This document shows positions 9,026-39,122 of a DNA stretch of 64,000 nucleotides, one piece after another. The position numbers were made by a program, and so were the translations under genes. Each line of letters begins with the position of its first letter. Positions within the stretch are counted from its first letter, which is position 1. The notes beneath the pieces are model-generated. The model worked only from the letters and a program-made list of their open reading frames with translations, was not told the DNA's origin and did no database searches. Origin of the DNA: Tubiluchus corallicola (Eukaryota > Animalia > Priapulida); contig JAQGDQ010000216.1 in assembly GCA_030141605.1 (NCBI GenBank), forward strand, positions 228,259 to 292,258. Direction: 5' to 3'.

Positions 9026-9529
9026 TTAATTTTCAAATTGCGGATCTACTACGCCGCTGGCGGGTGTTAATGTATAGGGTTGGTTGTAGGCGGTGTATAC
9101 AGTGCAGCCAAACTCTAGTTCATAAGTAAGCCAGCCGCGTGTGGGTAGTCGGTTAAATCGCGTAAGGTAGAGCTGTGAGTGGCAGGTGTTGGCGGTGCCT
9201 CCTATAGCTTCGTATATAACTTGTAATTTATCGAGATGTTCTAAGGCTACGGCTTGCTCCGCACTTATGTTACTGGCTCGTTCGCTTACACTGAAGGCTA
9301 CTTTTATATTTATAGTAAGGCTGCCCTGTTGTGTGGTGCGTCCGTTGAGTTCGAACTCCTGGCCTTGCTGTACATCTATCAATACGGCAGGAAAGCTAAC
9401 GGGTGCATTGGCTTTTTCTTCTAATTGTCCAAAGTCCCAGTCTAAGTAATAGGCTTCTAATTTGCCATCGCTCACGGCTTGTTGCAAGTTGTTATCTATG
9501 CCTGTGAATATTTGTTTGAGGAATTGCAT
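9026..9529 (-). CDS. Tail terminator/completion protein (Mu gp37-like)
   Basis: YLDWDFGQLE...PVSFPAVLID pattern; position after the morphogenesis gene. Confidence 0.6.
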   Translation of the reverse strand: MQFLKQIFTGIDNNLQQAVSDGKLEAYYLDWDFGQLEEKANAPVSFPAVLIDVQQGQEFELNGRTTQQGSLTINIKVAFSVSERASNISAEQAVALEHLDKLQVIYEAIGGTANTCHSQLYLTRFNRLPTRGWLTYELEFGCTVYTAYNQPYTLTPASGVVDPQFEN

Positions 9530-9954
9530 TAATTATTAATTATCTTAGTTATATCTTGTTTTATGTTGCTTATAGCTTTATTTGTCCAGTTTTTGTGGAC
9601 TCCAGCATATTGTCGTTTGGGGATATAGGCAGAGCGGCGGCGTCCGGCACGTCCCCCTTCGTTATGTATCTCGGCATAAGGTTCCTCGCTGCTTATCACT
9701 ATCTTATTTCCTCTACCTTTTATCTTTATACTGTCACGTAAGTTGGTGGTGTCCACCAATAAGGGGTGTCCACGACCTGCATCCTTACGAGCTCGCCACC
9801 TGCGGCCTGCCGGTGATTTTGACTTACGAAAGTTACCTATTATATTCTTTTCCATTTCTACAGATATTACTTTAGGGGCTGTTTTTTGCAGGTATTTTTG
9901 TAGCTCGCTATTTCTTTTTTGCCATTTTTTCTGTAGCTGTTTTACTGTGCTCAT
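9529..9954 (-). CDS. Phage virion morphogenesis/tail completion protein (Mu G/P2 S-like)
   Basis: W..RK...L.DT..LRDSI...PYAEIHNEGG...IPKRQY motif. Confidence 0.85.
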   Translation of the reverse strand: MSTVKQLQKKWQKRNSELQKYLQKTAPKVISVEMEKNIIGNFRKSKSPAGRRWRARKDAGRGHPLLVDTTNLRDSIKIKGRGNKIVISSEEPYAEIHNEGGRAGRRRSAYIPKRQYAGVHKNWTNKAISNIKQDITKIINN

Positions 9955-9964
9955 TATTTTGTAT

Positions 9965-10046
9965 TATATTTGTAGCTTATCGCGGTTTTGGGCGAAAGCT
10001 CTACTAAGATAGACAGGGGATTGCTTCGGCGTCCCCATTTTATTTT
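9965..10046 (+). ncRNA. Candidate ~65-70 nt structured small RNA convergent on muF
   Basis: TATATTTG -7 element at 9965-9972; GGGC-GAAA-GCTC hairpin at 9990-10001; GGGGATTGC-TTCG-GCGTCCCC at 10016-10036 followed by a T-rich tail. Confidence 0.45.
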
Positions 10047-11311
10047 GCTAGGTTCTTATAATTATACTTACGCCATCGCTTATCAATAAAAATATGTACA
10101 TCGTTTATATTGGCTTTGGGTTTGCGTTTGGCGACCTCCTTTAATTGTCCTTTGGCGCGAGCAAAAGTCATCTCGTTGCTGCTAGTTACTTTGATGCTTA
10201 CATCTATTTTGTTTTTGCTTTTTTCTGCTTGTTTAACGGCTGTTTCTAATCGCACCCCAGCTCTTTTTGTGGTTTGTTTAAATTCGTTGAGCCTGTTAAA
10301 TACCATTGCATCTATATGTTTTTTGCCGTGGATATATCCGTTTGGCATAAATTCTACAAGGTGGCCGCGGTTGTTAAACTCCTTAGCTATTTCCAGTTCT
10401 TGCGACTTCGGAGATAAGCTACGTGGTACAAGTGTGGGCGGCTTGGTGTTTCCTGCAAGAAATTGCCTTGTATAACCCTGATCAAAACGTGCTGCCCATT
10501 GCAGAGCTTTATTGGGTTGTGGAGTCGTAAAGTAAGGGTGGGATTTGTCAAAGGGTGGTTCCTTTCCATAATTAGAACTAAACATTGGCTTCAGTTCTAA
10601 TTCTCCTTTTTGTGTTTGTTTACTCCGTGTAGACTCTACTGTACAGCGGCATCCCCAATCGTTTGGCGGCAAATGAGTAGCCCAAAAGGGGTGGTCGATG
10701 GGATATACAGAGCCGTCTATTTGCTGATGGTCGGGGCGTACCTTGCTGTCCCCCGCTGTGAGGTAGCGTATAGATGGGTAGAGGTCTTTGTTCTGTACAG
10801 CTCTTTGCCACTTTTCGGCCATAGCTGCCGAGCGGTTGGCGTGCATATATTCGCTTCGTAGCCAATTCTTATTGTATTTTTCTGATATTTTCAAAGCCTC
10901 TTTTTTAAATTGCTCAAATGTTCTGCGCTCGCCCCCGCTGTTTACAAGTTGTTGAGCTACTTCAAGTGTATTGTTGTGATTTTTAAAAGCTGCAAAAGTT
11001 GAAAAATTGGTTTTTACCCGTTGTACAAAATTCCAGTTGGGTTCATTCCACTTAGTTTTTAATATATTTTGTTTATAAGTTTTGTTGTAATTATTTACAA
11101 AACCGTTGTATGTTTTTTCAAATGTTTTACGGTCTATTTCGCCCGCCTTTAAACTGCCTTTAAACAGCCTTGCAATAGTGTTGTTTATCTCTTTTTGTAG
11201 TGATGGTAGTATTACATCGTTTGTTAGTTGTTGGTTGTCCTTGTTGTATAATTTGTGTAGTGCTATAAAGTGTTGTTTTGCTGCCCCGCTTTTAATTACG
11301 GGGCTTATACG
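10040..11311 (-). CDS. MuF/SPP1 gp7 minor head protein with C-terminal PD-(D/E)xK-like putative toxin domain; probably expressed as a -1 frameshift fusion to portal
   Basis: Y.TAGD.KVRPDH...HPFW..HLPPNDWGCRC MuF motif; frame open from ~11320 with no ATG/GTG/TTG before 10894; C-terminal E..IA...G..VEFMP...KHID...EFK. Confidence 0.8.
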   Translation of the reverse strand, partial: RISPVIKSGAAKQHFIALHKLYNKDNQQLTNDVILPSLQKEINNTIARLFKGSLKAGEIDRKTFEKTYNGFVNNYNKTYKQNILKTKWNEPNWNFVQRVKTNFSTFAAFKNHNNTLEVAQQLVNSGGERRTFEQFKKEALKISEKYNKNWLRSEYMHANRSAAMAEKWQRAVQNKDLYPSIRYLTAGDSKVRPDHQQIDGSVYPIDHPFWATHLPPNDWGCRCTVESTRSKQTQKGELELKPMFSSNYGKEPPFDKSHPYFTTPQPNKALQWAARFDQGYTRQFLAGNTKPPTLVPRSLSPKSQELEIAKEFNNRGHLVEFMPNGYIHGKKHIDAMVFNRLNEFKQTTKRAGVRLETAVKQAEKSKNKIDVSIKVTSSNEMTFARAKGQLKEVAKRKPKANINDVHIFIDKRWRKYNYKNLAK

Positions 11312-11317
11312 AAAAAA
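11283..11317 (-). promoter_or_regulatory. Programmed -1 frameshift signal (portal to MuF)
   Basis: Minus strand T_TTT_TTC (11317-11311), 6-nt spacer GTATAA, hairpin GCCCCG-N10-CGGGGC. Confidence 0.7.
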
Positions 11318-12576
11318 TCTTTAACCTTCAGTTCGTTTGTTCTACCTACGTTACGCGGTGTTAGTGTGTCTTCTTCGTCTTGTGGTGTATTGCGTTTGTA
11401 GCGTTCGTAGAGCTCTTCTTTGGAGAGCGGCACTCCCATACTTAGAAGGGTTTCATCTACCTTTATGTGTTCTTCTGTACTATGTGTGTTTACCTCTTTA
11501 AACTGGAACTCACCTTGCAAATTCCAATTAGCACGGTTGAGTATAGGTAGTAGTTGGTTGTTAAGTGTACGTATTACCAATTGTCTGTCTTTGGAATTGA
11601 GCTGTTGGCTTACATCTCCATGTATTTGTGCCTGTGCGTAGCCAGAGTTGCGGCTGTCGAGTGTGGTCATGCTTTCACCTAATATACGTATGGCCATACG
11701 TTCCATCAGTCGCTTGTCAAGGGTGTCGTAAGTTCCATTAGCGCTTCCTGAGCCGCTGCCTGCTCCTGCATACATTATTTCTACATCTTTGTCGGTTATA
11801 AGTGTTGCTCCTGCTCCTGCTTCTTCTATTTGTTCTTTTATCTTCTCCCTTTCATCTTCATTATCCACTTTTATGTGTTTTTCGGGCATTCCGTATGTTT
11901 CGTTGCTTTCGCCCCAGTCGCCTATATTGTTCTCCATACGTATAGATAACTTACTGGCTTGTAGGTAAGCTCCCAAACTATACGGGTCGCCTACAGCTAT
12001 TGTGTTGTTGCTTTGTGGCGGTGTCAGGTAGCTTAAGCCTGTTGTGCTATAAGGGTCTTTTACTACTATGCCAAGCTCTGGCTTTACGTGTGAGCGAGGT
12101 ATAAGCACAACACTACCCTCTTCTATGCTGTTGGGCTTAGGTGCTGCTACTTCCAAAAGACTATATCCAAACAGCTCGCTGTTGATGGTTTCTTTTAATA
12201 TAGTGGTAAAATAATTGGTATCGAATATAGGGGCTATCTCTTCGTTCTCCGTGCCATCTTGGTTTTTAAATATTATGGGCGTGTTGAGTATGGGCATACG
12301 GCGTTTATCTGATAGTGATGCTAAGAAGTCGTCTTTGCTTAATACATCCCAGTATAGTTCGTAGAGTAGTTTGCGGGTCTTGGTCTCTCCGCAGGCGTGG
12401 TCGCGTGCAGCCTTCCAGTCTTGCATATCGCGACGGCGTTTGCTAAATGTAGTAAGGTTGATGTATTTAATAAGGGTGTTTTCTGCGTTTTCGCCCCGTG
12501 TTATAGTTACCCTACCTGTGTCAAGTCTAGCAGGTGGTACGGGTTTTTTCCTCCATTTTTTAAAAAAGCTAAACAT
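11305..12576 (-). CDS. Portal protein (Mu gp29/DUF935)
   Basis: FGYSLLE, IPRSHVKPE, WGE..E.YGMP, ILGESMTT...GYAQAQIH motifs. Confidence 0.9.
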   Translation of the reverse strand: MFSFFKKWRKKPVPPARLDTGRVTITRGENAENTLIKYINLTTFSKRRRDMQDWKAARDHACGETKTRKLLYELYWDVLSKDDFLASLSDKRRMPILNTPIIFKNQDGTENEEIAPIFDTNYFTTILKETINSELFGYSLLEVAAPKPNSIEEGSVVLIPRSHVKPELGIVVKDPYSTTGLSYLTPPQSNNTIAVGDPYSLGAYLQASKLSIRMENNIGDWGESNETYGMPEKHIKVDNEDEREKIKEQIEEAGAGATLITDKDVEIMYAGAGSGSGSANGTYDTLDKRLMERMAIRILGESMTTLDSRNSGYAQAQIHGDVSQQLNSKDRQLVIRTLNNQLLPILNRANWNLQGEFQFKEVNTHSTEEHIKVDETLLSMGVPLSKEELYERYKRNTPQDEEDTLTPRNVGRTNELKVKDFFV

Positions 12577-12985
12577 AGTTATCTCGTTTTATTGCGTTAC
12601 GGCTTACAATTTGCGTTTTACGTTCAGCAGTATCTTCTCTACGTGCCAAATCAGGATATATACCACTAGTTTGCGCCCCTCGTAACCATTCAATAGCTCT
12701 TTTGTAGCGAGTCTCTCTATCTATAATATCCTGCCCTGCCTGCTCTCTACTCACTATAATGTATATGGCTATATCGGCTACTAAGTTCACGAGTAGCTGG
12801 TGGCGGTCTGTACCAGTTTTTGTAAATATAATTTCCACATCATAACTATCAAACAAGTAAGTGGTAGCTTCGCTCTGGGCCGAGTCAATAGCTGCATTTA
12901 TGATGGTGTCGTCGCCACGTGTTATTTGTTCTAGCTCATCTATTAGTATTTGTTTTGTTATGTCTGTTTTATTTATAAAACTCAT
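12569..12985 (-). CDS. Head-tail adaptor (Mu gp36/DUF1320)
   Basis: FI...D...AI..A..EA..YL...YD...IF...DIAIY...RYKRAIEWL. Confidence 0.85.
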   Translation of the reverse strand: MSFINKTDITKQILIDELEQITRGDDTIINAAIDSAQSEATTYLFDSYDVEIIFTKTGTDRHQLLVNLVADIAIYIIVSREQAGQDIIDRETRYKRAIEWLRGAQTSGIYPDLARREDTAERKTQIVSRNAIKRDNYV

Positions 12986-29103: not shown

Positions 29104-29187
29104 AAAAAACAATAATTGACATGAAAAAAACAATAATTGACATGAAAAAAACAATAATTGACATGAAAAAAACAATAATTGACATGA
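29104..29187 (+). repeat. 21-bp tandem repeat x4 containing the start codon (x2 in the paralog)
   Basis: AAAAAAACAATAATTGACATG; ATGs at 29121, 29142, 29163, 29184 versus 32126, 32147. Confidence 0.9.
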
Positions 29188-31568
29188 AGGTTGTAACTAA
29201 CACAAAGGTATCATCTAAATCTATTGCGTTACTATTATTATTTTCACTCTTCGTTTTTGCGTTAGGGTGTGAAAAAGAAAAAAAAGGTGTAGAGGCTCCT
29301 CTCTCCGGAGAAAAAGATATCAAGGAGTTTGTTTTTAAGGCAATTTATAATAAAAATGTACTAATAGCAGATGTGAACCCCGAAGAAATTTTAGAGGATA
29401 AAATTACATTAATAGTTCCCTATGGCACAGATTTATCAGTAGCATTAATCCCTAGCATAGAAGTATCAGAAAAAGCCAGAGTAAGCCCGGCAAGCGGTGT
29501 GGCAGTGAACTTTAAAGCAGGGTCGGCAGAGTACAAAGTAACAGCAGAAGATAATAGTGTAAAGAGTTATACTGTAATAGTTACGGAAAACAAGTGTGCA
29601 TTTACGAAATTTGTATTTGAACAAAAATATAATACAGGCGTATTAACAGAAGATACTGAACTCGGAGAAATTTCAGAAGAGAACAATACTATTAAACTAA
29701 ATGTTCCTTACAATACAGATGTAACAGCGTTAGTAGCCACTTTTGAGGTATCTGAGGGAGCCACAGTAAAGGTAGATGGAAAACAACAAACAAGTGGAGT
29801 AACAGGGGTTGACTTCTCAGATGTTAATGGTGTAAAATACACTGTAACAGCAGAAGATGGCAACACTAAGGATTATACTGTAACAGTTACGGAAGCACCC
29901 GCAAGTAGTGAATGTGAAATTACAGAATTTCTATTTGAGGGAGACAATAATGAGTTTGAGGATAATGTAACCGCGGAAAATATTACCGGAACCAACATTA
30001 ACATAACAGTTCCTTTCGGTACAGATGTAACAAAGTTAGTAGCCACTTTTACAGTATCTGAGGGAGCCTCAGTAACGGTAGATGGAAACCAACAAACAAG
30101 TGGAGAAACAGGGGTTGACTTCTCAGATGTTAATGGTGTAATATACACTGTAACAGCACAAGATGGCAACACTCAGGAGTATACTGTAACAGTAAAGTCA
30201 CCACAGCCCTCTTTCGCTACCGTGAGCTATTACGAGAGAGAGAACCGTATAGGAGCAGGGGATTTTGAAAAACCCGATCTGTTTGAGATAAGTGATATAG
30301 CAGAGGGGAACTACAATTACACATTGAAGATAGCAGATAAAACTGCAAATGGTACAGTAGAAGTAAAAGACGGTAATGGTACAATAGGCGGCAGTACGCT
30401 GCTTGCTTCTGACTGGAATGAAATAGATGATGGCAATATTATCATTGCATTAACCTTAGAAGGTTCTACCTTTAGCTACAACACTACCAAAGAGCAGTAT
30501 AATATAAAGAGCTGGCAGGATCTGCAGGGGATAAAATATAATCTAGGTGGTCGTTACACTTTGATGAATGATATAGAGCTGCCAGAACCCTCCCAAACAG
30601 AAGGCATTTTCCCGGAAGAGCTACCTAAAGAAGGCTTTGACCCTGTCGGTAATAATGATAATAATAGATTCGAGGGTTCTCTCGATGGTGATGACAAGGT
30701 GATAGAGAACTTGTTTATAGATAGAGAGAATACAAACGGGGTAGGCCTGTTTGGATATATACGGAACGCTGAGATAGAAAATGTAATTATAAAAATAGAT
30801 AACGAAGGAATAGGAATAACTGGAAATTCGAATGTTGGTGGGTTGGTAGGGCTTGGAATTAATTCAACAATTGATAACTGCCATATTACAGGAGGCTCCA
30901 TACTGGCAAAAGGTAATAACGCTGGTGGGGTATTAGGATATGGATCAGTTTCTGATACTGATCTCTTTGAAATATCAAAAAGTTCCGCATCAGTAAATGT
31001 TACCGCAGAGGGTGGCAGCGGTCGTGTCGGAGGATTAGCAGGATCTTTTGGATATTTGAATTATAACACTGATGCTTTAAAAATTAATGAGTGTAAGGCT
31101 ACGGGAAATGTAGCAGGCACAAATCACTTAGGTGGCTTAATAGGAGTGCTTGGAGGTACCGTCACCAACTCTTACAGCACAGGGGATGCTAAAGGTAGTA
31201 GCGGAGGGAGCACTTATGGTGGACTAATAGGAATTTGTACTGCTACAGGAGCAGCCATAATTGAGAACTGTTATGCCACCGGAGAGACGAATAATGCATC
31301 TCCACTGCTTGGTGGCTTGATAGGAGGAGATGCGTCTGAAAATAGTGATATTTATAGTTATTGGGATGAGGAAAGTTCAGGAGTGCAGGAACTTCCTGAA
31401 ACTCTGGCAGGAATTGGAGTTAGCAGTGGCAGCCATTTGAAAAAAGAGGGCAGCCAGTACAAAGATACTGAAAAGGATAGAGAAGTCTTTGAATACTGGG
31501 ACTTCTCAAATACTTGGAAATGGGTGAATGATGGAGAGTGGCCCATTCTCAATTGGGAGGCGCAATAA
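29121..31568 (+). CDS. Surface lipoprotein: 3 Ig-like (DUF5018-like) repeats + GLUG-motif beta-helix
   Basis: Lipobox FALG-C then EKEKK; VP.GTD...YTVTAEDG repeats; VGGLVG/YATG repeats; W......WP.L.W end. Confidence 0.88.
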   Translation: MKKTIIDMKKTIIDMKKTIIDMKVVTNTKVSSKSIALLLLFSLFVFALGCEKEKKGVEAPLSGEKDIKEFVFKAIYNKNVLIADVNPEEILEDKITLIVPYGTDLSVALIPSIEVSEKARVSPASGVAVNFKAGSAEYKVTAEDNSVKSYTVIVTENKCAFTKFVFEQKYNTGVLTEDTELGEISEENNTIKLNVPYNTDVTALVATFEVSEGATVKVDGKQQTSGVTGVDFSDVNGVKYTVTAEDGNTKDYTVTVTEAPASSECEITEFLFEGDNNEFEDNVTAENITGTNINITVPFGTDVTKLVATFTVSEGASVTVDGNQQTSGETGVDFSDVNGVIYTVTAQDGNTQEYTVTVKSPQPSFATVSYYERENRIGAGDFEKPDLFEISDIAEGNYNYTLKIADKTANGTVEVKDGNGTIGGSTLLASDWNEIDDGNIIIALTLEGSTFSYNTTKEQYNIKSWQDLQGIKYNLGGRYTLMNDIELPEPSQTEGIFPEELPKEGFDPVGNNDNNRFEGSLDGDDKVIENLFIDRENTNGVGLFGYIRNAEIENVIIKIDNEGIGITGNSNVGGLVGLGINSTIDNCHITGGSILAKGNNAGGVLGYGSVSDTDLFEISKSSASVNVTAEGGSGRVGGLAGSFGYLNYNTDALKINECKATGNVAGTNHLGGLIGVLGGTVTNSYSTGDAKGSSGGSTYGGLIGICTATGAAIIENCYATGETNNASPLLGGLIGGDASENSDIYSYWDEESSGVQELPETLAGIGVSSGSHLKKEGSQYKDTEKDREVFEYWDFSNTWKWVNDGEWPILNWEAQ

Positions 31569-31618
31569 TACTAAAACCCTACTTCAGGTAGAAATATAAT
31601 ACTAATTCAAGACAGAAC

Positions 31619-31661
31619 AAAACCCCGAAAAAGGACAAATTTGATCCTGAATCGGGGTTTT
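31619..31661 (+). terminator. Terminator-like hairpin after lipoprotein 1
   Basis: AAAACCCCGA...TCGGGGTTTT. Confidence 0.55.
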
Positions 31662-31665
31662 CTGT

Positions 31666-31781
31666 GACACTGTTTCACAAAGTGTAAATATAGCACTATC
31701 TCATAAACTGTATAAATAGAAAATGCCGAGGGTTGCAACCCTCGGCATTTTTTTAGTTTACACACTTTGTGAAACAGTGTC
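31666..31781. mobile_element. IS256-type MITE copy 2 (31692-31781) with an extra outer IR
   Basis: GACACTGTTTCACAAAGTGT at 31666 is a perfect 20-bp inverted match to the right end. Confidence 0.8.
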
Positions 31782-32125
31782 TGCAATACACTCTGCCCAA
31801 ATCGAAACAAGTCAGAACAAAAATATTACAGCCAACTGAAATGCAAAAAAAGTTGTTAAATATGAAATTATAAACTTGGGTGCTGCAATGCACAAAACAG
31901 GAAGTAGTTGTTTCAAACAAGGCTTAATGTAATGAGCCCTGAGAAGTAATATTGAAAAGGATCATGAAATAAAAATAAAAATTCTTAAAACATGGACCTG
32001 ACATCGACTTGCAGATGTAATTTTTTTCATATCCTCTTTACAGAGTTTTTTTTTCATATCTTTTCATATCTTTGCAGAGTTTTTTCGATCATACTAAGAC
32101 ATCAATTTAAAAAACAATAATTGAC

Positions 32126-34432
32126 ATGAAAAAAACAATAATTGACATGAAGGTTGTAACTAACACAAAGGTATCATCTAAATCTATTGCGTTACTATTA
32201 TTATTTTCACTCTTCGTTTTTGCGTTAGGGTGTGAAAAAGAAAAAAAAGGTGTAGAGGCTCCTCTCTCCGGAGAAAAAGATATCAAGGAGTTTGTTTTTA
32301 AGGCAATTGATAATAAAGATGTACTAATAGCAGATGTGAACCCCGAAGAAATTTCAGAGGATAAAATTACATTAATAGTTCCCTATGGCACAGATCCAAA
32401 TGGATTGATTCCTACTATAGAAGTATCAGATAAAGCCAGTATATATCCGGAGAGTGGAGTCCCGGGAAACTTCACAGATGCAGCAACTTATACTGTAACA
32501 GCAGAAGATAATAGTGTAAAGAGTTATACTGTAATAGTTACGGAAAACAAGTGTGCATTTACGAAATTTGTATTTGAACAAAAATATAATACAGGCGTAT
32601 TAACAGAAGATACTGAACTCGGAGAAATTTCAGAAGAGAACAATACTATTAAACTAAATGTTCCTTACAATACAGATGTAACAGCGTTAGTAGCCACTTT
32701 TGAGGTATCTGAGGGAGCCACAGTAAAGGTAGGCACAGATCCACAAATAAGTGAAGTAACAGAGACTAACTTTACAAGCCCTGTTACCTACACTGTAACA
32801 GCAGAAGATGGCAACATATCTCAGGATTATACTGTAACAGTAAAGCCACAGCCCTCTTTCGCTACCGTGAGCTATTACGAGAGAGAGAACCGTGTAGGAG
32901 CAGGGGATTTTGAAAAACCCGATCTGTTTGAGATAAGTGATATAGCAGAGGGGAGCTACAATTACACATTGAAGATAGCAGATAAAACTGCAAATGGTAC
33001 AGTAGAAGTAAAAGACGGTAATGGTACAATAGGCGGCAGTACGCTGAGTATTTCTGATTGGAATAAAATAGATGATGGCAATATCAACGTTGTATTAGAG
33101 ATTGAAGAGATTGAAGGTATTGACTTTACCTACACTGTAACCAAAGAGCAGTATAAAATAAGAAGTTGGCAAGATTTGCAAGGTATGAAGTATAATTTAA
33201 ATGGTAGTTATACTTTGATGAATGATATAGAACTACCAGACCCTACAAACGGAACTTTCCCTGCCGAGCTTCCATCACAAGGGTTTAAGCCTGTGGGGCA
33301 GGCGCAGTGGACGGAGGATGAGAGTTTTAAAGGCTCATTTGATGGACAGAATTATGTAATAAGCAATTTCTTTATAAATAGAGTAGTTACGGATTATGTA
33401 GGTTTGTTTGGTAGTACCAAAGGTGCAACTACAACTATAGAAAATGTAGGTATAAAAATATCATCAGACGGTGTTACAGGAAGATATTATGTCGGCGGCC
33501 TGGTGGGGCGTGCCTTGGAAGGGAGCACTATTGAAAACTGTAATGTAACGGAGGATGATAATGTAACGGAGAATGATGATATAGTTACAGGAAAAAGAAC
33601 CATTGGCGGCCTGGTGGGGAGTGCCACTAATACCACTATTACCAACAGTTATACAATGATAAAAGTTAATTCAACTGGAGGATCTGCGGGAGATAGTGAT
33701 GTCGGCGGCCTGGTGGGGAGTACCACTAATAGCTCCATTACCAACAGTTATGCAACGGGGGATGTTACAGGAGATAGAACTGTCGGCGGCCTGGTGGGGA
33801 AGGCCGACAGTACTCCCGATATTGGCGACAGTAATATCACTATTGCCAACAGTTATGCAACGGGTAATGTTACAGGAAGTACGATTGTCGGCGGCCTGGT
33901 GGGGGTACTTGAAGCTAATAATAGTAATACGGGATCCTATATTTATAGAAGCTATGCCACAGGTAGTGTAAGTGGTACAAATGTTGAAGAAAGCTATGTA
34001 GGGGGGTTGGTTGGTCGTTTTTTTAGGGGAACTATTTCAGATAGTTATGCTACAGGCAGTGTAAGTGGAGTGAAATATGTAGGAGGGTTGTTTGGGCGTA
34101 TACACTATACTGATGCCTTTACAAAAAGAACTTACGCTACAGGTATAGTGACAGGGAGTAGTGATGTTGGAGGTTTGGGAGGCCATCAATCTGGAGGAGG
34201 AGATACTCATAGTTACTGGGATATACACAGTACAGGACAGACACAGTCTTCTGTAGGAACGGGTGTTTCCTCAAGATCTAATCTGGTAGAGATTGAAGGT
34301 AAATACTACGATACAGGCCCAAACCCTGATGTTGAAGTTTTCATTGACTGGAAGTTTGGCGATAATGATGAGAATCCTTGGAAGTGGGAGGGCACTGGTC
34401 AGTGGCCTACTCTCTACTGGCAGGGGAACTAA
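32126..34432 (+). CDS. Surface lipoprotein: 2 Ig-like repeats + GLUG beta-helix
   Basis: Leader and N-terminus near-identical to 29121; divergent GLUG domain. Confidence 0.88.
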   Translation: MKKTIIDMKVVTNTKVSSKSIALLLLFSLFVFALGCEKEKKGVEAPLSGEKDIKEFVFKAIDNKDVLIADVNPEEISEDKITLIVPYGTDPNGLIPTIEVSDKASIYPESGVPGNFTDAATYTVTAEDNSVKSYTVIVTENKCAFTKFVFEQKYNTGVLTEDTELGEISEENNTIKLNVPYNTDVTALVATFEVSEGATVKVGTDPQISEVTETNFTSPVTYTVTAEDGNISQDYTVTVKPQPSFATVSYYERENRVGAGDFEKPDLFEISDIAEGSYNYTLKIADKTANGTVEVKDGNGTIGGSTLSISDWNKIDDGNINVVLEIEEIEGIDFTYTVTKEQYKIRSWQDLQGMKYNLNGSYTLMNDIELPDPTNGTFPAELPSQGFKPVGQAQWTEDESFKGSFDGQNYVISNFFINRVVTDYVGLFGSTKGATTTIENVGIKISSDGVTGRYYVGGLVGRALEGSTIENCNVTEDDNVTENDDIVTGKRTIGGLVGSATNTTITNSYTMIKVNSTGGSAGDSDVGGLVGSTTNSSITNSYATGDVTGDRTVGGLVGKADSTPDIGDSNITIANSYATGNVTGSTIVGGLVGVLEANNSNTGSYIYRSYATGSVSGTNVEESYVGGLVGRFFRGTISDSYATGSVSGVKYVGGLFGRIHYTDAFTKRTYATGIVTGSSDVGGLGGHQSGGGDTHSYWDIHSTGQTQSSVGTGVSSRSNLVEIEGKYYDTGPNPDVEVFIDWKFGDNDENPWKWEGTGQWPTLYWQGN

Positions 34433-34468
34433 AAAAAGAGGCAAAAGTATACTTACTAATAATTATTT

Positions 34469-34503
34469 AAACCCGTGCTTACTGCAAAGGCACGGGTTTT
34501 TTT
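34469..34503 (+). terminator. Intrinsic terminator (near-identical copy at 39146-39180, related copy at 55524-55556)
   Basis: AAACCCGTGC-loop-GCACGGGTTTTTTT. Confidence 0.8.
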
Positions 34504-34639
34504 GCATAGTTTTTCATCAAAAGAATTTACAGGCTTGATCTTGGGGTTCTTTTGTGTCATGACAAAAGAACTTGATCCTTCGCCTCTCTTACATCAAAAC
34601 AAAAGAATGTAAAGAAAACAGCTAAAAGGAGATATAAAA

Positions 34640-34739
34640 CAATGCCTCGTTTTTGGAGCTCTTGTAAAAAACCATTGAGCTCTTCCCCTGAATTAAACTG
34701 TTCAAGGAAATCATCATTTAATAAATCTTCTTTTTTCAT
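34640..34739 (-). pseudogene. IS256-family transposase 5' remnant
   Basis: MKKEDLLNDDFLEQFNSGEELNGFLQELQKRGI resembles Bacteroidota IS256 N-termini, then loses similarity. Confidence 0.75.
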
Positions 34740-34787
34740 TACTGTCTAAAGTTTTAAAATTAAACAAAAAAATGCCGAGGGATCCTC

Positions 34788-34877
34788 AGCACTATCTCAT
34801 AAACTGTGTAAATAGAAAATGCCGAGGGTTGCAACCCTCGGCATTTTTTTAGTTTACACACTTTGTGAAACAGTGTC
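34788..34877. mobile_element. 90-bp IS256-type MITE, copy 3
   Basis: Near-identical to 28686-28775. Confidence 0.8.
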
Positions 34878-35114
34878 TGCAATACACTCTGCCCAAATCG
34901 AAACAAGTCAGAACAAAAATATTACAGCCAACTGAAATGCAAAAAAAGTTGTTAAATATGAAATTATAAACTTGGGGGCTGCAATGCACAAAACAGGAAG
35001 AACAAGAAGTGTTAAAAAAAAACAATAAAGCAGAATAAAATAAAATTAATTAACTTTCCGCAAAGACATTTTCTTTATCTTTACGAAGATCACTTTAATA
35101 AATTTATTAAGAAT

Positions 35115-38100
35115 ATGAAAACAGCAGCATTTAAACCACTAATCAATATACTTATATTGCTCCTAGCTATTACATTTGGATGCAAAAAAGGGGATGAAGA
35201 ACCACCTCTCTCCGATGAGAATCTGATTACTGAGTTTGCGTTTAGGAAAAGTGTCAATGGGTCATTAGCTGTCGATGTAGATGCGGGTGTAATCACAGGC
35301 ACAGAAATTGAACTAACAGTTCCTTTTGGTACAGCCCTCGAGTTAACTCCTACAATAGAGATATCGGATGGTGCCACTATTAGTCCTGCTAGTGGAGTGC
35401 CTATAAACTTTGAAGAAACAAACCCTGCAAGCTACACAGTAACAGCGGAGAATGGCGACGAGCGGGAGTATAAAGTAACAGTTGAAGTAGCACAAAATAC
35501 CGAATGTAAAATCAAAACTTTTGTATTTGAACAAAAATATAATACAGGCGTATTAACAGAAGATACTGAACTCGGAGAAATTTCAGAAGAGAACAATACT
35601 ATTAAACTAAATGTTCCTTACAATACAGATGTAAAAAATTTAGTAGCCACTTTTGAGGTATCTGAGGGAGCCACAGTAACGGTAGATGGAATTACACAAG
35701 TAAGTGGAGTAACAGATGTCGACTTTACAGGCGATGTTATTTACACTGTAACAGCACAAGATGGAACCTCCACACAGGAGTATACTGTAAAAGTTACGGA
35801 AGCACCCGCAAGTAGTGAATGTGAAATCAAAACTTTTGTGTTTGAGGAAAAAAATAATAAGGATAATTTATATGTCGATGTAGATGCGGGCGTAATTACA
35901 GGCCCAGATATCACACTCACAGTACCTTTTGGTACAGCCCTCGAGTTAACTCCTACAATAGAGATATCGGATGATGCCACTATTAATCCTGCTAGTGGAG
36001 TGCCTGTAAACTTTGGACTACTAAACCATCTAACCTACACAGTAACAGCGGAGAATGGCGACGAGCAGGATTATAAAGTAACAGTTACTGTAGCAGAAAA
36101 CACAGCAAATGACATCATATGGTTTAAATTTGAGCATGAAAAAAATGATGAATTAGATATAGATGTTGACGCCGGAGAGATAGAAGGAACTAACATTGAA
36201 CTAACAGTTCCCCGTAATACGAATATAACAGAACTGATAGCCAGTTTTGAAGTATCAGAAGGAGCCACAGTAAAGGTAGATGGAGAGACACAAGTAAGTG
36301 GAACAACAAAGGTTGACTTCTCAGATGTTGATGGTGTAAAATACATTGTAGAAGCAGAAGATGGCAGCACTCAGGAGTATACAGTAACAGTTAAAGAAGC
36401 AAAAAATAGCGCAAGTGCGATTACTAGCTTTGTGTTTGAGGAAAAAAATAATAAGAATAATTTATATGTCGATGTAGATGCGGGCGTAATTACAGGCACA
36501 GATATCCCACTCATAGTACCTTTTGGTACAGACCTCGAGTTAACTCCTACAATAGGAATATCGGATGGTGCCACTATTAGTCCGGATAGTGGTGAATCTG
36601 TGGACTTTTCCAGCAGCGCCACACAAGCTGTAGAATACACAGTAACATCAGAAGATAATACTACTACTGAGACTTATAGAGTAGAAGTTACTGTAGCATC
36701 TGAAACAGACAAAGAGATTACGAGCTTTGTGTTTGAGGCAGATAAAAATAGTGATAAAGGATTAACTAAAGATGTAGTGGCGGAAGATGTTACAGGTCCG
36801 GATATCACATTAATAGTACCTTATAATACAAATGTAGCATCATTAACTCCTACAATTACAATAAAAGGTAAACACATCACTCCTAAAAGTGGAGAGGCAA
36901 TAAGTTTCGAGAGTTTTGTAACCTATACAGTAACAGCAGGGGATGACACGACTCAGGATTATAAAGTAACAGTTAATAAAGAGGAGGCTAGCACAGCAAG
37001 CGACATACTCCGCTTTGCATTTGAGGTAGGGGATAATAAAGATAAATTAACTGAAGACGTAGTTGTGGAAAATATTACAAGCACAGATATCACACTCGAA
37101 GTACCTTATGGCACAAACCTCGAGCTAATCCCCAGAATAGAGATATCGGAGTATGCTTCAATAGATCCTGAAAGTGGTGTATTAAATGATTTTTCCAACA
37201 GTGAATCAGCACCTGTAGAATACGAAGTAACAGCTCAAGATGATGAAACCACTAAGGTTTACGAAGTAACAGTAAAAGAAACGCCAGCAAGTGACGAAAA
37301 AGAGATCACTCTCTTTGACTTTGAAGTATCAGACAACCCTACATATATAGAAGAAAAAGTGGAGGGTGATATTTCACCTGAAGACAATACAATTAGATTA
37401 AAGGTACCTTTTGGTACAGACGTGCATTCACTAAGGCCCAGAATAGAGATATCGGAGTATGCTTCAATAAGTCCTGAAAGTGGTGTATTAAATGATTTTT
37501 CCAACAGTGAATCAGCACCTGTAGAATACGAAGTAACAGCTCAAGATGAAACTTCCCAGACTTATTATGTAACCGTAGTCATCGAAAATATACCACGCCC
37601 CACTTTCACTGTTTTAAGTTATAATAATGGAGCCAATCGTATAGGAGCCGGAGACTTAGAAAAGCCGGATCTGTTTCAGATAGGAGATCTTCAGGATGGT
37701 AGTTATGACTATTCACTAAAGATAGACAACAAAGATGCAGGAGGTGGTACATTATCAGTATTGGGTGGTAAAGCCTCAATAGGCAGTACGCTGCTTGCTT
37801 CTGACTGGAATGAAATAGATGATGGCAATATTACCATTGTATTAACCTTAGAAGGTTCTACCTTTAGCTACAACACTACCAAAGAGCAGTATAGTGTAAA
37901 GAGTTGGCAGGATCTTCAGGGGATGAAGTACGGTTTGTCAGGTGACTACACTTTGATGAATGATATAGAGCTGCCTGACCCCTCCCAAACAGGAGGCACT
38001 TTCCCGGAGGAGCTTCCTGCAGCAGGTTTTGACCCTGTGGGTGGTAGATTTACAGGTTCATTTAGTTCAGCTAGTGGAGAGATATATGTAATAAGCAACC

Positions 38101-39122
38101 TATTTATAGATAGAGGAAATGATGAATATGTAGGGCTGTTTGCTTATGCATTCAATGCAACCATCGAGAATGTTGGAATAGAAATATCAGATGGTGGTGT
38201 GACGGGGCATGAACATGCTGGTGGCCTGATGGGGTATAATCGTAGTAGTACTGTTAATAATATTACCATTACCGGTGGTAGTATAAAGTCAACACAAAAA
38301 TGGGATGATACTGGATACGAAGGGTGTGCTGGCAGCCTGGTGGGGTTTAATCACGATGGCAGTATAACCAACTGTTACGCTACTGGTACTAGTATTCTGG
38401 GAGGAATAAATCTTGGCGGTCTGGTGGGGTTTAATTTAGATGGCAGTATAACCGATAGCTACGCTACTGGTAGTGTGTCTGGAGGAGATAATTCTGGTAC
38501 AGCTATCGGCGGCCTGGTGGGGGAAGATGTGAGAGGTACTATAACCAACTGTTATGCTACCGGTAGTGTGTCGGTAGGATCTACCTTCAAAACCCGCATT
38601 GGCGGTCTGGTTGGTAGATCCGCTTCCAGAATAATCGACTGTTACGCTACTGGTAGTGTGACGGGTGGAGAGAGTACTGGCGGCCTGGTGGGGATTAATT
38701 ACTATGGCAGTATAACCGATAGCTACGCTACTGGCAGTGTGATGGATGGAAAGAGTAATGGCGGCCTGGTGGGGTATAATCACGATGGCAGTATAACCGA
38801 TAGCTACGCTACTGGCAGTGTGACGGGTGGAGTGATGAATGGCGGCCTGGTGGGAGAGTATCGGCAAGGCACTATAACCAAAAGCTACTGGGATAAGGGT
38901 AGTACAGGGCAAAGTGGTTCTGCTGGCGGGAAGGGGACGGGTGTCTCCTCGGGAGCTTACCTGGAGAAAGAAGGAGCTGTATATATAGATAAAGAAGCAG
39001 ATGGCAATGGTACTACAAATGTTTTTGTAGATTGGTCTATTAGTGACGATGACACTGAAACCTGGAAGTGGCGGGGTAATGGTCAATGGCCTGTTCTCAC
39101 CTGGCCACCACCAGGCAACTAA
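35115..39122 (+). CDS. Surface lipoprotein: 8 Ig-like repeats + GLUG beta-helix
   Basis: Lipobox ITFG-C then KKGDEE; eight ~90-aa repeats; GGLVG...ITDSYATGSV repeats. Confidence 0.88.
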   Translation: MKTAAFKPLINILILLLAITFGCKKGDEEPPLSDENLITEFAFRKSVNGSLAVDVDAGVITGTEIELTVPFGTALELTPTIEISDGATISPASGVPINFEETNPASYTVTAENGDEREYKVTVEVAQNTECKIKTFVFEQKYNTGVLTEDTELGEISEENNTIKLNVPYNTDVKNLVATFEVSEGATVTVDGITQVSGVTDVDFTGDVIYTVTAQDGTSTQEYTVKVTEAPASSECEIKTFVFEEKNNKDNLYVDVDAGVITGPDITLTVPFGTALELTPTIEISDDATINPASGVPVNFGLLNHLTYTVTAENGDEQDYKVTVTVAENTANDIIWFKFEHEKNDELDIDVDAGEIEGTNIELTVPRNTNITELIASFEVSEGATVKVDGETQVSGTTKVDFSDVDGVKYIVEAEDGSTQEYTVTVKEAKNSASAITSFVFEEKNNKNNLYVDVDAGVITGTDIPLIVPFGTDLELTPTIGISDGATISPDSGESVDFSSSATQAVEYTVTSEDNTTTETYRVEVTVASETDKEITSFVFEADKNSDKGLTKDVVAEDVTGPDITLIVPYNTNVASLTPTITIKGKHITPKSGEAISFESFVTYTVTAGDDTTQDYKVTVNKEEASTASDILRFAFEVGDNKDKLTEDVVVENITSTDITLEVPYGTNLELIPRIEISEYASIDPESGVLNDFSNSESAPVEYEVTAQDDETTKVYEVTVKETPASDEKEITLFDFEVSDNPTYIEEKVEGDISPEDNTIRLKVPFGTDVHSLRPRIEISEYASISPESGVLNDFSNSESAPVEYEVTAQDETSQTYYVTVVIENIPRPTFTVLSYNNGANRIGAGDLEKPDLFQIGDLQDGSYDYSLKIDNKDAGGGTLSVLGGKASIGSTLLASDWNEIDDGNITIVLTLEGSTFSYNTTKEQYSVKSWQDLQGMKYGLSGDYTLMNDIELPDPSQTGGTFPEELPAAGFDPVGGRFTGSFSSASGEIYVISNLFIDRGNDEYVGLFAYAFNATIENVGIEISDGGVTGHEHAGGLMGYNRSSTVNNITITGGSIKSTQKWDDTGYEGCAGSLVGFNHDGSITNCYATGTSILGGINLGGLVGFNLDGSITDSYATGSVSGGDNSGTAIGGLVGEDVRGTITNCYATGSVSVGSTFKTRIGGLVGRSASRIIDCYATGSVTGGESTGGLVGINYYGSITDSYATGSVMDGKSNGGLVGYNHDGSITDSYATGSVTGGVMNGGLVGEYRQGTITKSYWDKGSTGQSGSAGGKGTGVSSGAYLEKEGAVYIDKEADGNGTTNVFVDWSISDDDTETWKWRGNGQWPVLTWPPPGN

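Follow-up and report, generated by a model that had tools for sequence, protein, structure and literature searches.

In phage lambda and other tailed phages, a −1 ribosomal slip just before the stop codon of the tail chaperone gene G extends it into GT, a second open reading frame (ORF) without a start of its own, and a short and a long product are made in a fixed ratio; this frameshift was reportedly described by Levin et al. in 1993 and by Xu, Hendrix and Duda in 2004. The tau and gamma subunits of dnaX arise by a −1 frameshift in Escherichia coli and by transcriptional slippage on an A-run in Thermus. MuF toxins are described as stand-alone proteins of temperate phages, encoded directly downstream of the portal and accompanied by adjacent immunity ORFs (Jamet 2017, PMC5576092; Zhang 2012, PMC3482391; Apk2, PMC10083569; Bxa, PMC11699363), and effector domains fused in-frame to MuF and portal domains have been predicted to be packaged and injected (Iyer 2017, PMC5512222). 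PMC5576092 and PMC10083569 both cite phage SPP1, in which each capsid has 1–2 copies of the MuF protein gp7 bound to the portal protein gp6, and the entry of MuF proteins and their toxin tails into the head, as well as their copy number, is treated as open in PMC10083569. The accessible text of PMC5576092, PMC3482391, PMC10083569, PMC11699363 and PMC5512222 makes no mention of frameshifting, and we came across no description of recoding at a portal–MuF junction in the literature, of which supplements and surveys of bacterial recoding may mention the site. Here we describe such a junction in a transposable Mu-like prophage lying in 64,000 nucleotides (nt) of contig JAQGDQ010000216.1 (positions 228,259 to 292,258) of the Tubiluchus corallicola assembly GCA_030141605.1, a stretch referred to in its entirety as the window. 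A known recoding mechanism appears to operate at a location where we found none described, in that a programmed −1 ribosomal frameshift very likely (at a rough probability of 85%, judged from sequence comparison) fuses the portal to its MuF protein.

The 3′ end of the portal gene reads GAT TTT TTC GTA TAA on the minus strand, and the elements of the junction, in window positions, are as follows.

11305..12576, minus strand: Mu-type portal gene, 423 amino acids (aa), whose 0-frame product stops two codons past the first Phe of the heptamer
11311..11317, minus strand: slippery heptamer T TTT TTC, phased to the portal frame, with a T run of six
11283..11304, minus strand: GC-rich hairpin, a predicted frameshift stimulator, 6 nt past the heptamer
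10040..11320, minus strand: start-less MuF frame, −1 relative to the portal, made up of an N-terminal helical part, the MuF domain, a linker and a tail
10043..10420, minus strand: C-terminal tail, by profile and fold a predicted CdiA-CT-like PD-(D/E)xK nuclease that shows the pattern E...D...ExK

The portal matches PF06074 (E 4e-47), phrog_113 and phrog_35074, and the 426 codons of the MuF frame match PF04233 (E 2e-15) over residues 125–228. No ATG, GTG or TTG occurs in the first 142 codons of the MuF frame, the first TTG being codon 143 (10894) and the first ATG codon 159 (10846), and the conserved FAAFK block precedes both. In the hairpin, the stem GCCCCG (11304–11299) pairs with CGGGGC (11288–11283) to give a fold of 7 bp with an 8-nt loop and −14.7 kcal/mol, with z-scores of −3.9 to −4.8 in the three short windows that were folded. 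The features of a canonical −1 site, namely an in-register X XXY YYZ heptamer, a 3′ structure within 5–9 nt and a start-less open −1 frame, are all present, and the predicted fusion would contain 422 + 423 = 845 aa. An earlier sequence-only reading of this DNA had proposed each of these elements: the MuF frame open from about 11320 to 10040 with start-less early codons proved exact, T_TTT_TTC, the 6-nt spacer and the GC hairpin were all found where it had placed them at the portal end, and both the exact −1 phase and the length of approximately 845 aa were correct. We also considered the hairpin as an intrinsic terminator and ruled this out because no U-tract follows it (none of the 8 nt behind it is a T); a terminator search found none there.

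To place this junction among its relatives, we gathered 314 loci from MuF-seeded scans, each represented by its best 80 matches, and from five phage records, giving 315 sequences including the window; since the loci were found via MuF, the portal alignment being too diverse as a seed, the set is biased towards MuF proteins with the PPNDWGC motif, and a portal query against viral contigs gave no match. Portal and MuF were both held by 296 of the 315 sequences, which formed 155 clusters at 90% portal identity. Before counting, we set aside 19 loci in which no portal was detected, 31 clusters of proteobacterial type (a filter that also removed loci L110 and L122) and five non-adjacent or broken clusters, leaving 20 in-frame portal–MuF fusions and 99 adjacent, unfused Bacteroidota-type pairs. 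As the clusters have common ancestry, the counts that follow are not independent trials; the 69 clusters with a heptamer and no ATG fall into 25 groups at 50% identity.

No ATG was found within 30 nt of the portal stop in 74 of the 99 adjacent clusters, and among these 74 non-redundant clusters the MuF frame is in −1 phase in 70, while a heptamer lies within the last three codon positions of the portal in 63. The corresponding heptamer frequency was 5/25 in clusters with a nearby ATG, 1/31 in proteobacterial-type clusters and 33/800 at other ORF ends, and an in-frame XXX YYY Z heptamer occurred in 160 of 11,556 portal-body windows. The 76 non-redundant −1 sites comprise AAAAAAG (27), TTTTTTC (25), GGGAAAG (12), AAAAAAA (6), TTTTTTT (5) and CCCAAAC (1), so that T-type heptamers account for 30. 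At these T-type sites a 6-bp stem starts at +6 in 28/30, against 0–9/30 at ten other offsets, and the downstream sequence folds with a mean of −15.8 kcal/mol, with z below −2 in 27/30 when compared with mononucleotide shuffles. All six stem columns contain more than one Watson–Crick pair type and the two arms covary through compensatory changes. In addition, over the 12 codons past the portal stop in one clade (17 sequences), variation at the three −1-frame positions was 0.14/0.04/0.37; since it lies mainly at third positions, these codons appear to be coding before any ATG in this clade. The comparison of homologous portal 3′ ends that the sequence-only reading had called for was thus borne out for phase and heptamer, and for the hairpin at T-type sites.

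Individual phages differ at the junction. In Hankyphage (L082, BK010646; also L317 and L318) T TTT TTC and the same hairpin lie 13 codons ahead of the end of the portal gene. The site of Peternella is an A10 run in −1 phase, and in pippi8-1 and FPSV-S1 the MuF uses its own ATG. The Hankyphage record also has an opposite-strand ORF that overlaps the MuF end. In an own-ATG clade (L024, L027, L044) the portal itself terminates in a KLH..L..LY helix, and frameshifting relatives (L012, L047) have a similar L..LHY segment just past the slip site, which implies that bare portals differ in keeping this helix.

These data show that the junction has the anatomy of a slip site, that MuF has no usable start, and that phase, heptamer, spacer and stem are conserved across diverged Bacteroidota Mu-like phages. 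Because phase, heptamer and covarying hairpin are conserved, a portal–MuF frameshift is strongly supported. A fraction of ribosomes would slip back one base at T_TTT_TTC, aided by the GC hairpin, and a single mRNA would then give a bare portal of 423 aa together with an 845-aa portal–MuF protein carrying a predicted CdiA-CT-like nuclease tail. We infer the slip itself, that the two kinds of chain assemble into a single portal ring, and that the head carries the tail. A search for RNA runs containing the stretch returned none, which counts neither for nor against a slip. Mass spectrometry (MS) of Hankyphage capsids (PMC12135933, Table S6) gave 20 portal and three MuF peptides, with MuF in the 250–85 kDa slice; this cannot show a fusion, because small proteins such as the head–tail adaptor also occur in that slice.

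Several points weigh against a frameshift at this junction. A- and G-type sites do not have a comparable hairpin (8/46 at +6), and 11 of the 25 ATG-bearing loci are also in −1 phase, which makes phase alone weak support since ATGA or TAATG coupling gives −1 phase too. Only 3 of 56 relatives are wholly free of ATG, GTG and TTG before the FxxFK block (50/56 have no ATG in the first 40 codons), so that internal MuF starts may be used in some of them, and Hankyphage, with its signal, also has two ATGs near the portal stop. In the window itself an ATA overlaps the portal stop and further near-cognate codons lie behind it. Finally, the window portal is a long branch on a quick tree, with at most 34% identity to any relative, and support for its site therefore comes from distant kin.

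The in-frame fusions bear on what the junction may be for. A slip signal is kept at the junction in 17 of these 20 clusters, as a T-heptamer plus hairpin in six and as an A10–11 run in 11, with three lacking a signal. In the six inverted clusters, which include Porphyromonas gingivalis phage007a and three Rikenellaceae-type loci, T TTT TTY, a spacer of six bases and GCCCCG...CGGGGC sit at the portal end inside an open frame, and a −1 stop follows 15–20 codons on; a −1 slip here would truncate the fusion and yield a short portal. These six could be recent relics, which would count against a working signal, but their synonymous divergence argues otherwise: four-fold sites match at just 28–58%, yet the signal is kept, and only 1 of 6 other Phe–Phe pairs in these genes is coded as at the heptamer. 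On the quick tree the inverted clusters need two changes, each beside extending T-type relatives, with a Shimodaira–Hasegawa-like approximate likelihood ratio test (SH-aLRT) value of 100 for both groups. At a low slip rate, most subunits in these phages would be fused.

Runs of A10–11 occupy the junction in 26 clusters, in −1, 0 and +1 phase. Four of these junctions (L104, L290, L002, L078) are in +1 or 0 phase, one being a +1 outlier among 62 near-identical contigs, and L002 differs from its −1 relatives in A-run length only; such junctions may arise from slippage in the transcript, from phase variation of the DNA itself or from homopolymer errors. As far as can be read from these junctions, the family would have four solutions: a −1 slip that extends the portal (the commonest), a −1 slip that truncates an in-frame fusion, an A10–11 run irrespective of phase, with transcriptional slippage probably among the mechanisms, and an ATG of its own for MuF.

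No tail beyond MuF is present in 14 of 53 complete −1/no-ATG relatives, in which the slip signal is nevertheless kept, which means that the toxin is not the sole reason for the frameshift. Because tailless loci keep the signal and six fusions hold the opposite logic, selection is likely to act on having portal chains of both kinds, some bare and some bearing MuF, the toxin tail being a cargo that can be exchanged. The same tailless and inverted loci do not support the earlier proposal that a few fused subunits are made and that the slip sets the toxin dose; both chain types may be wanted, in a ratio perhaps nearer even than ‘a few’.

The tail of the window MuF resembles a nuclease toxin, as had been predicted. 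It scores 35.7 bits against a profile of the CdiA_C-like tails of relatives built without it, where the best of 500 shuffles reached 8.2, and a profile including it finds PDB 4G6V (E 0.0011). An alignment-based model with a predicted local distance difference test (pLDDT) score of 89 has 4G6V as its top Foldseek match (probability 1.00, template modelling (TM) score 0.63, E 2e-3). On the other side, the tail has no direct Pfam match, a single-sequence model (pLDDT 61.5) gave no fold match, and the better model is biased because it was built with CdiA_C-like relatives; a phmmer search of 1.84 billion representatives returned two weak, uninformative matches only. The scanned tails of 40 relatives were CdiA_C, LPD3, PBECR2 or unassigned. 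The gene lies just downstream of the portal in a temperate phage and has a predicted variable C-terminal domain, as MuF polymorphic toxins do, but no small immunity ORF lies directly downstream, where an 85-nt gap is followed by the neck gene. The MuF-tail gene appears to work like a MuF toxin without forming a standard toxin–immunity pair.

The 85-nt gap contains two predicted elements that face MuF.

9965..9972, plus strand: TATATTTG, a promoter-like element that points back at the MuF stop and matches TAnnTTTG
9974..10046, plus strand: candidate convergent small RNA of about 70 nt (predicted), z −3.5

TAnnTTTG, which TATATTTG fits, is the −7 promoter element of Bacteroidota. The candidate RNA consists of a 5′ hairpin (9974–10000), a terminator-like hairpin (10016–10036) and a U-tract (10038–10046) overlapping the MuF stop codon; it overlaps the MuF ORF by a few bases only, no fixed −33 element was seen, and it had no Rfam match. 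Of 68 tailed MuFs, 51 have the reverse promoter motif behind them in this orientation and one has it in the opposite one, but it follows only 3/35 tailless MuFs and none of ten tailless loci with a long gap, against a background of 46/497 portal windows and 4/63 other gaps. By tail type, assigned with local profiles, it was present in 27/29 CdiA, 10/11 LPD3, 5/8 PBECR2, 9/15 unassigned and 0/5 peptidase loci, an association found after the fact. A terminator-like site occurred on the motif strand in 41/51 and on the other strand in 12/51. By eye, CdiA-type RNAs mostly have two hairpins and LPD3- or PBECR-type RNAs one long interrupted hairpin.

In type III toxin–antitoxin systems the antitoxin RNA binds the toxin protein and is co-transcribed upstream of the toxin gene, whereas the candidate here is downstream and convergent. 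In type I systems an antisense RNA converges on the toxin gene, with its promoter and terminator at the 3′ end of that gene; the motif and terminator-like counts above would fit such a layout, and the overlap of only a few bases and the lack of a fixed −33 element would not. That it acts as an RNA antitoxin, taking the place of the immunity protein, is the weakest step of our proposal and a tentative one, to which we give less than even odds on the sequence pattern. In four LPD3-tailed loci (L034, L084, L250, L252) the apical loop of the predicted RNA, on the opposite strand, resembles a tRNA anticodon loop (GUA, GCA, GAA); as mimicry this is no more than a lead, 5/10 against a shuffle rate of 0.23 not being significant. 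Taken together, the idea that Bacteroidota Mu-like phages build mixed portal rings through a two-way recoding switch that loads a set share of the subunits with a swappable nuclease, restrained in the virion-borne toxin's case not by an immunity protein but by a convergent RNA of about 60–70 nt with a toxin-family-specific fold, is one that we regard as speculative and, as a whole, doubtful.

The alternative that survives best accepts the frameshift and takes the tail for an inactive passenger, with the convergent unit being merely a bidirectional terminator or a leftover cassette promoter. The absence of an immunity ORF behind MuF speaks for it, small ORFs being reported behind 89% of MuF toxins (Jamet 2017, PMC5576092), and so does the PBECR tail of Mu's own MuF, called inactive by Iyer 2017 (PMC5512222). 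The acidic/lysine nuclease pattern is present in our tail, however, and the reverse promoter motif tracks nuclease tails (CdiA-type against peptidase-type and tailless loci, as counted above), and a passenger tail seems to us unlikely, while still a serious possibility.

Far less probable is that MuF is a separate protein made by re-initiation, either at TTG 10894 or at a near-cognate codon (the ATA over the portal stop or an ATT within the hairpin loop), with the hairpin only tuning the start. The ATA, codon 5 of the MuF frame, overlaps the stop much as in ATGA coupling, and MuF has its own ATG and no heptamer in 18 of the 99 adjacent clusters, with both in another seven. Against this, the stop-overlapping codon is not start-like in 11/22 T-type sites (CTA, GTA, TTA), TTG 10894 lies behind conserved MuF columns, and coupling leaves both the heptamers (63/74) and the fixed 6-nt spacer unexplained.

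Slippage of RNA polymerase on the homopolymer, adding one base, would yield the same fusion as a ribosomal slip. Such slippage generally needs an A or T run of roughly nine bases or more. The 26 clusters with an A10–11 run in all three phases fit this for those members, but the run in the window is six T, as it is in 25/30 T-type sites, the hairpin at +6 has ribosome geometry, and the 12 G GGA AAG sites have no long run; at the window junction this explanation is highly improbable. That the junction is an assembly error or a dead-prophage mutation of an in-frame fusion is hardly credible and largely refuted, for although in-frame fusions are known (20 clusters; phrog_35074; the 853-aa ‘portal’ annotated in P. 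gingivalis phage007a) and A-run length alone separates L002 from its −1 relatives, two variant contigs from public runs of one sample, possibly the window's own source (contigs, not raw reads), cross the site with 0 gaps and 11 and 4 substitutions, of which those listed near the site hit the spacer or fall outside the stem, a stop with a hairpin behind it is found again in dozens of independent contigs as well as in cultured phages, and phase is constant within the 33 multi-member 90% clusters save for one contig, L078. Since fusions occur in annotated phage genomes and in PHROG 35074, the earlier equation of an in-frame fusion with an assembly error was too simple.

Profile matches of the window proteins to Pfam and PHROG identify the element as a Mu-like, transposable prophage from a host of Bacteroidota type; the prophage genes include protease, capsid, sheath, tape measure, gp36 adaptor, portal, MuF, neck, amidase and holin. 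Transposase and repressor sit within the same element as MuF and portal, as in a temperate phage, and MuA/MuB transposition genes occur together with a Mu-type portal, gp36 adaptor and sheath, as in Winoviridae-like transposable phages, a placement for which our comparisons covered portal and MuF only. The remaining features are as follows.

12569..12985, minus strand: Mu gp36-like head–tail adaptor gene, upstream of the portal (PF07030, E 3e-11)
9529..9954, minus strand: neck/tail-completion gene, the first ORF past MuF after the 85-nt gap and not an immunity gene (PF05069, E 3e-12; phrog_26)
About 41.8–44.8 kb: transposase and MuB-like genes (phrog_310, E 6e-40; phrog_296, E 1e-35)

The 98-aa gene preceding the tape measure (16084–15627, minus strand) terminates in G GTA AAG TTG TAA, and its −1 frame is open for 57 codons, until just short of the tape measure start; this is likely, from the sequence, to be a tail-chaperone G/GT frameshift site, in which case the prophage would carry two recoding sites. 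An 83-aa ORF (9010–8759, minus strand) is nearly a copy of the initial 80 or so residues of the adjoining 515-aa ORF (8756–7209, minus strand), and neither had a match in the profile scans of long ORFs. Three large DUF5018/GLUG proteins (815, 768 and 1335 aa; 29121–39122, plus strand) separate the tail fibre from the early genes and are probably cargo; the first two have a common N-terminus, and the first opens with a tandem 7-residue repeat.

If a covalent portal–MuF chain is made by recoding, it would answer the question of how MuF enters the head for a group that includes the gut phage Hankyphage, Peternella and P. gingivalis phages. Deposited MuF starts in the group would then often be wrong or arbitrary (Hankyphage records begin at two ATGs, Peternella at a GTG approximately 100 nt past the stop) and ‘fused portals’ would conceal a short product. 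One signal used in both polarities would be an unusual natural experiment on oligomer stoichiometry, and the RNA candidate, if real, would explain nuclease tails without immunity genes.

Compared with known systems, the locus shares with MuF polymorphic toxins a portal-adjacent MuF and interchangeable C-terminal domains (CdiA_C, LPD3 and PBECR2 among its relatives), but differs in having a start-less MuF and no immunity ORF behind it. The MuF/portal–PBECR fusions of polyvalent proteins are similar as effector fusions, but are in-frame only, with no recoding. Like SPP1 gp7, a low-copy protein, the MuF here would be attached to the portal; gp7 has a separate start and binds non-covalently, whereas here the link would be covalent. 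The CdiA-CT nuclease of PDB 4G6V, the top profile and fold match of the tail at approximately 15% identity, belongs, unlike the tail here, to a contact-dependent toxin that is paired with an immunity protein. The inverted and A10 members parallel dnaX, in which a slip truncates an oligomer subunit and is ribosomal or transcriptional by lineage; dnaX is, however, a host replication gene, and we know of no polarity reversal between its relatives. In layout the locus resembles G/GT, where a −1 slip also lies just ahead of a stop and the second ORF is also start-less, and the G GGA AAG of 12 relatives is the lambda slip site itself. Unlike the G/GT site, the portal–MuF site lies in the head module, would join the portal to MuF and an enzyme tail that varies, and is found in two polarities, one extending and one truncating.

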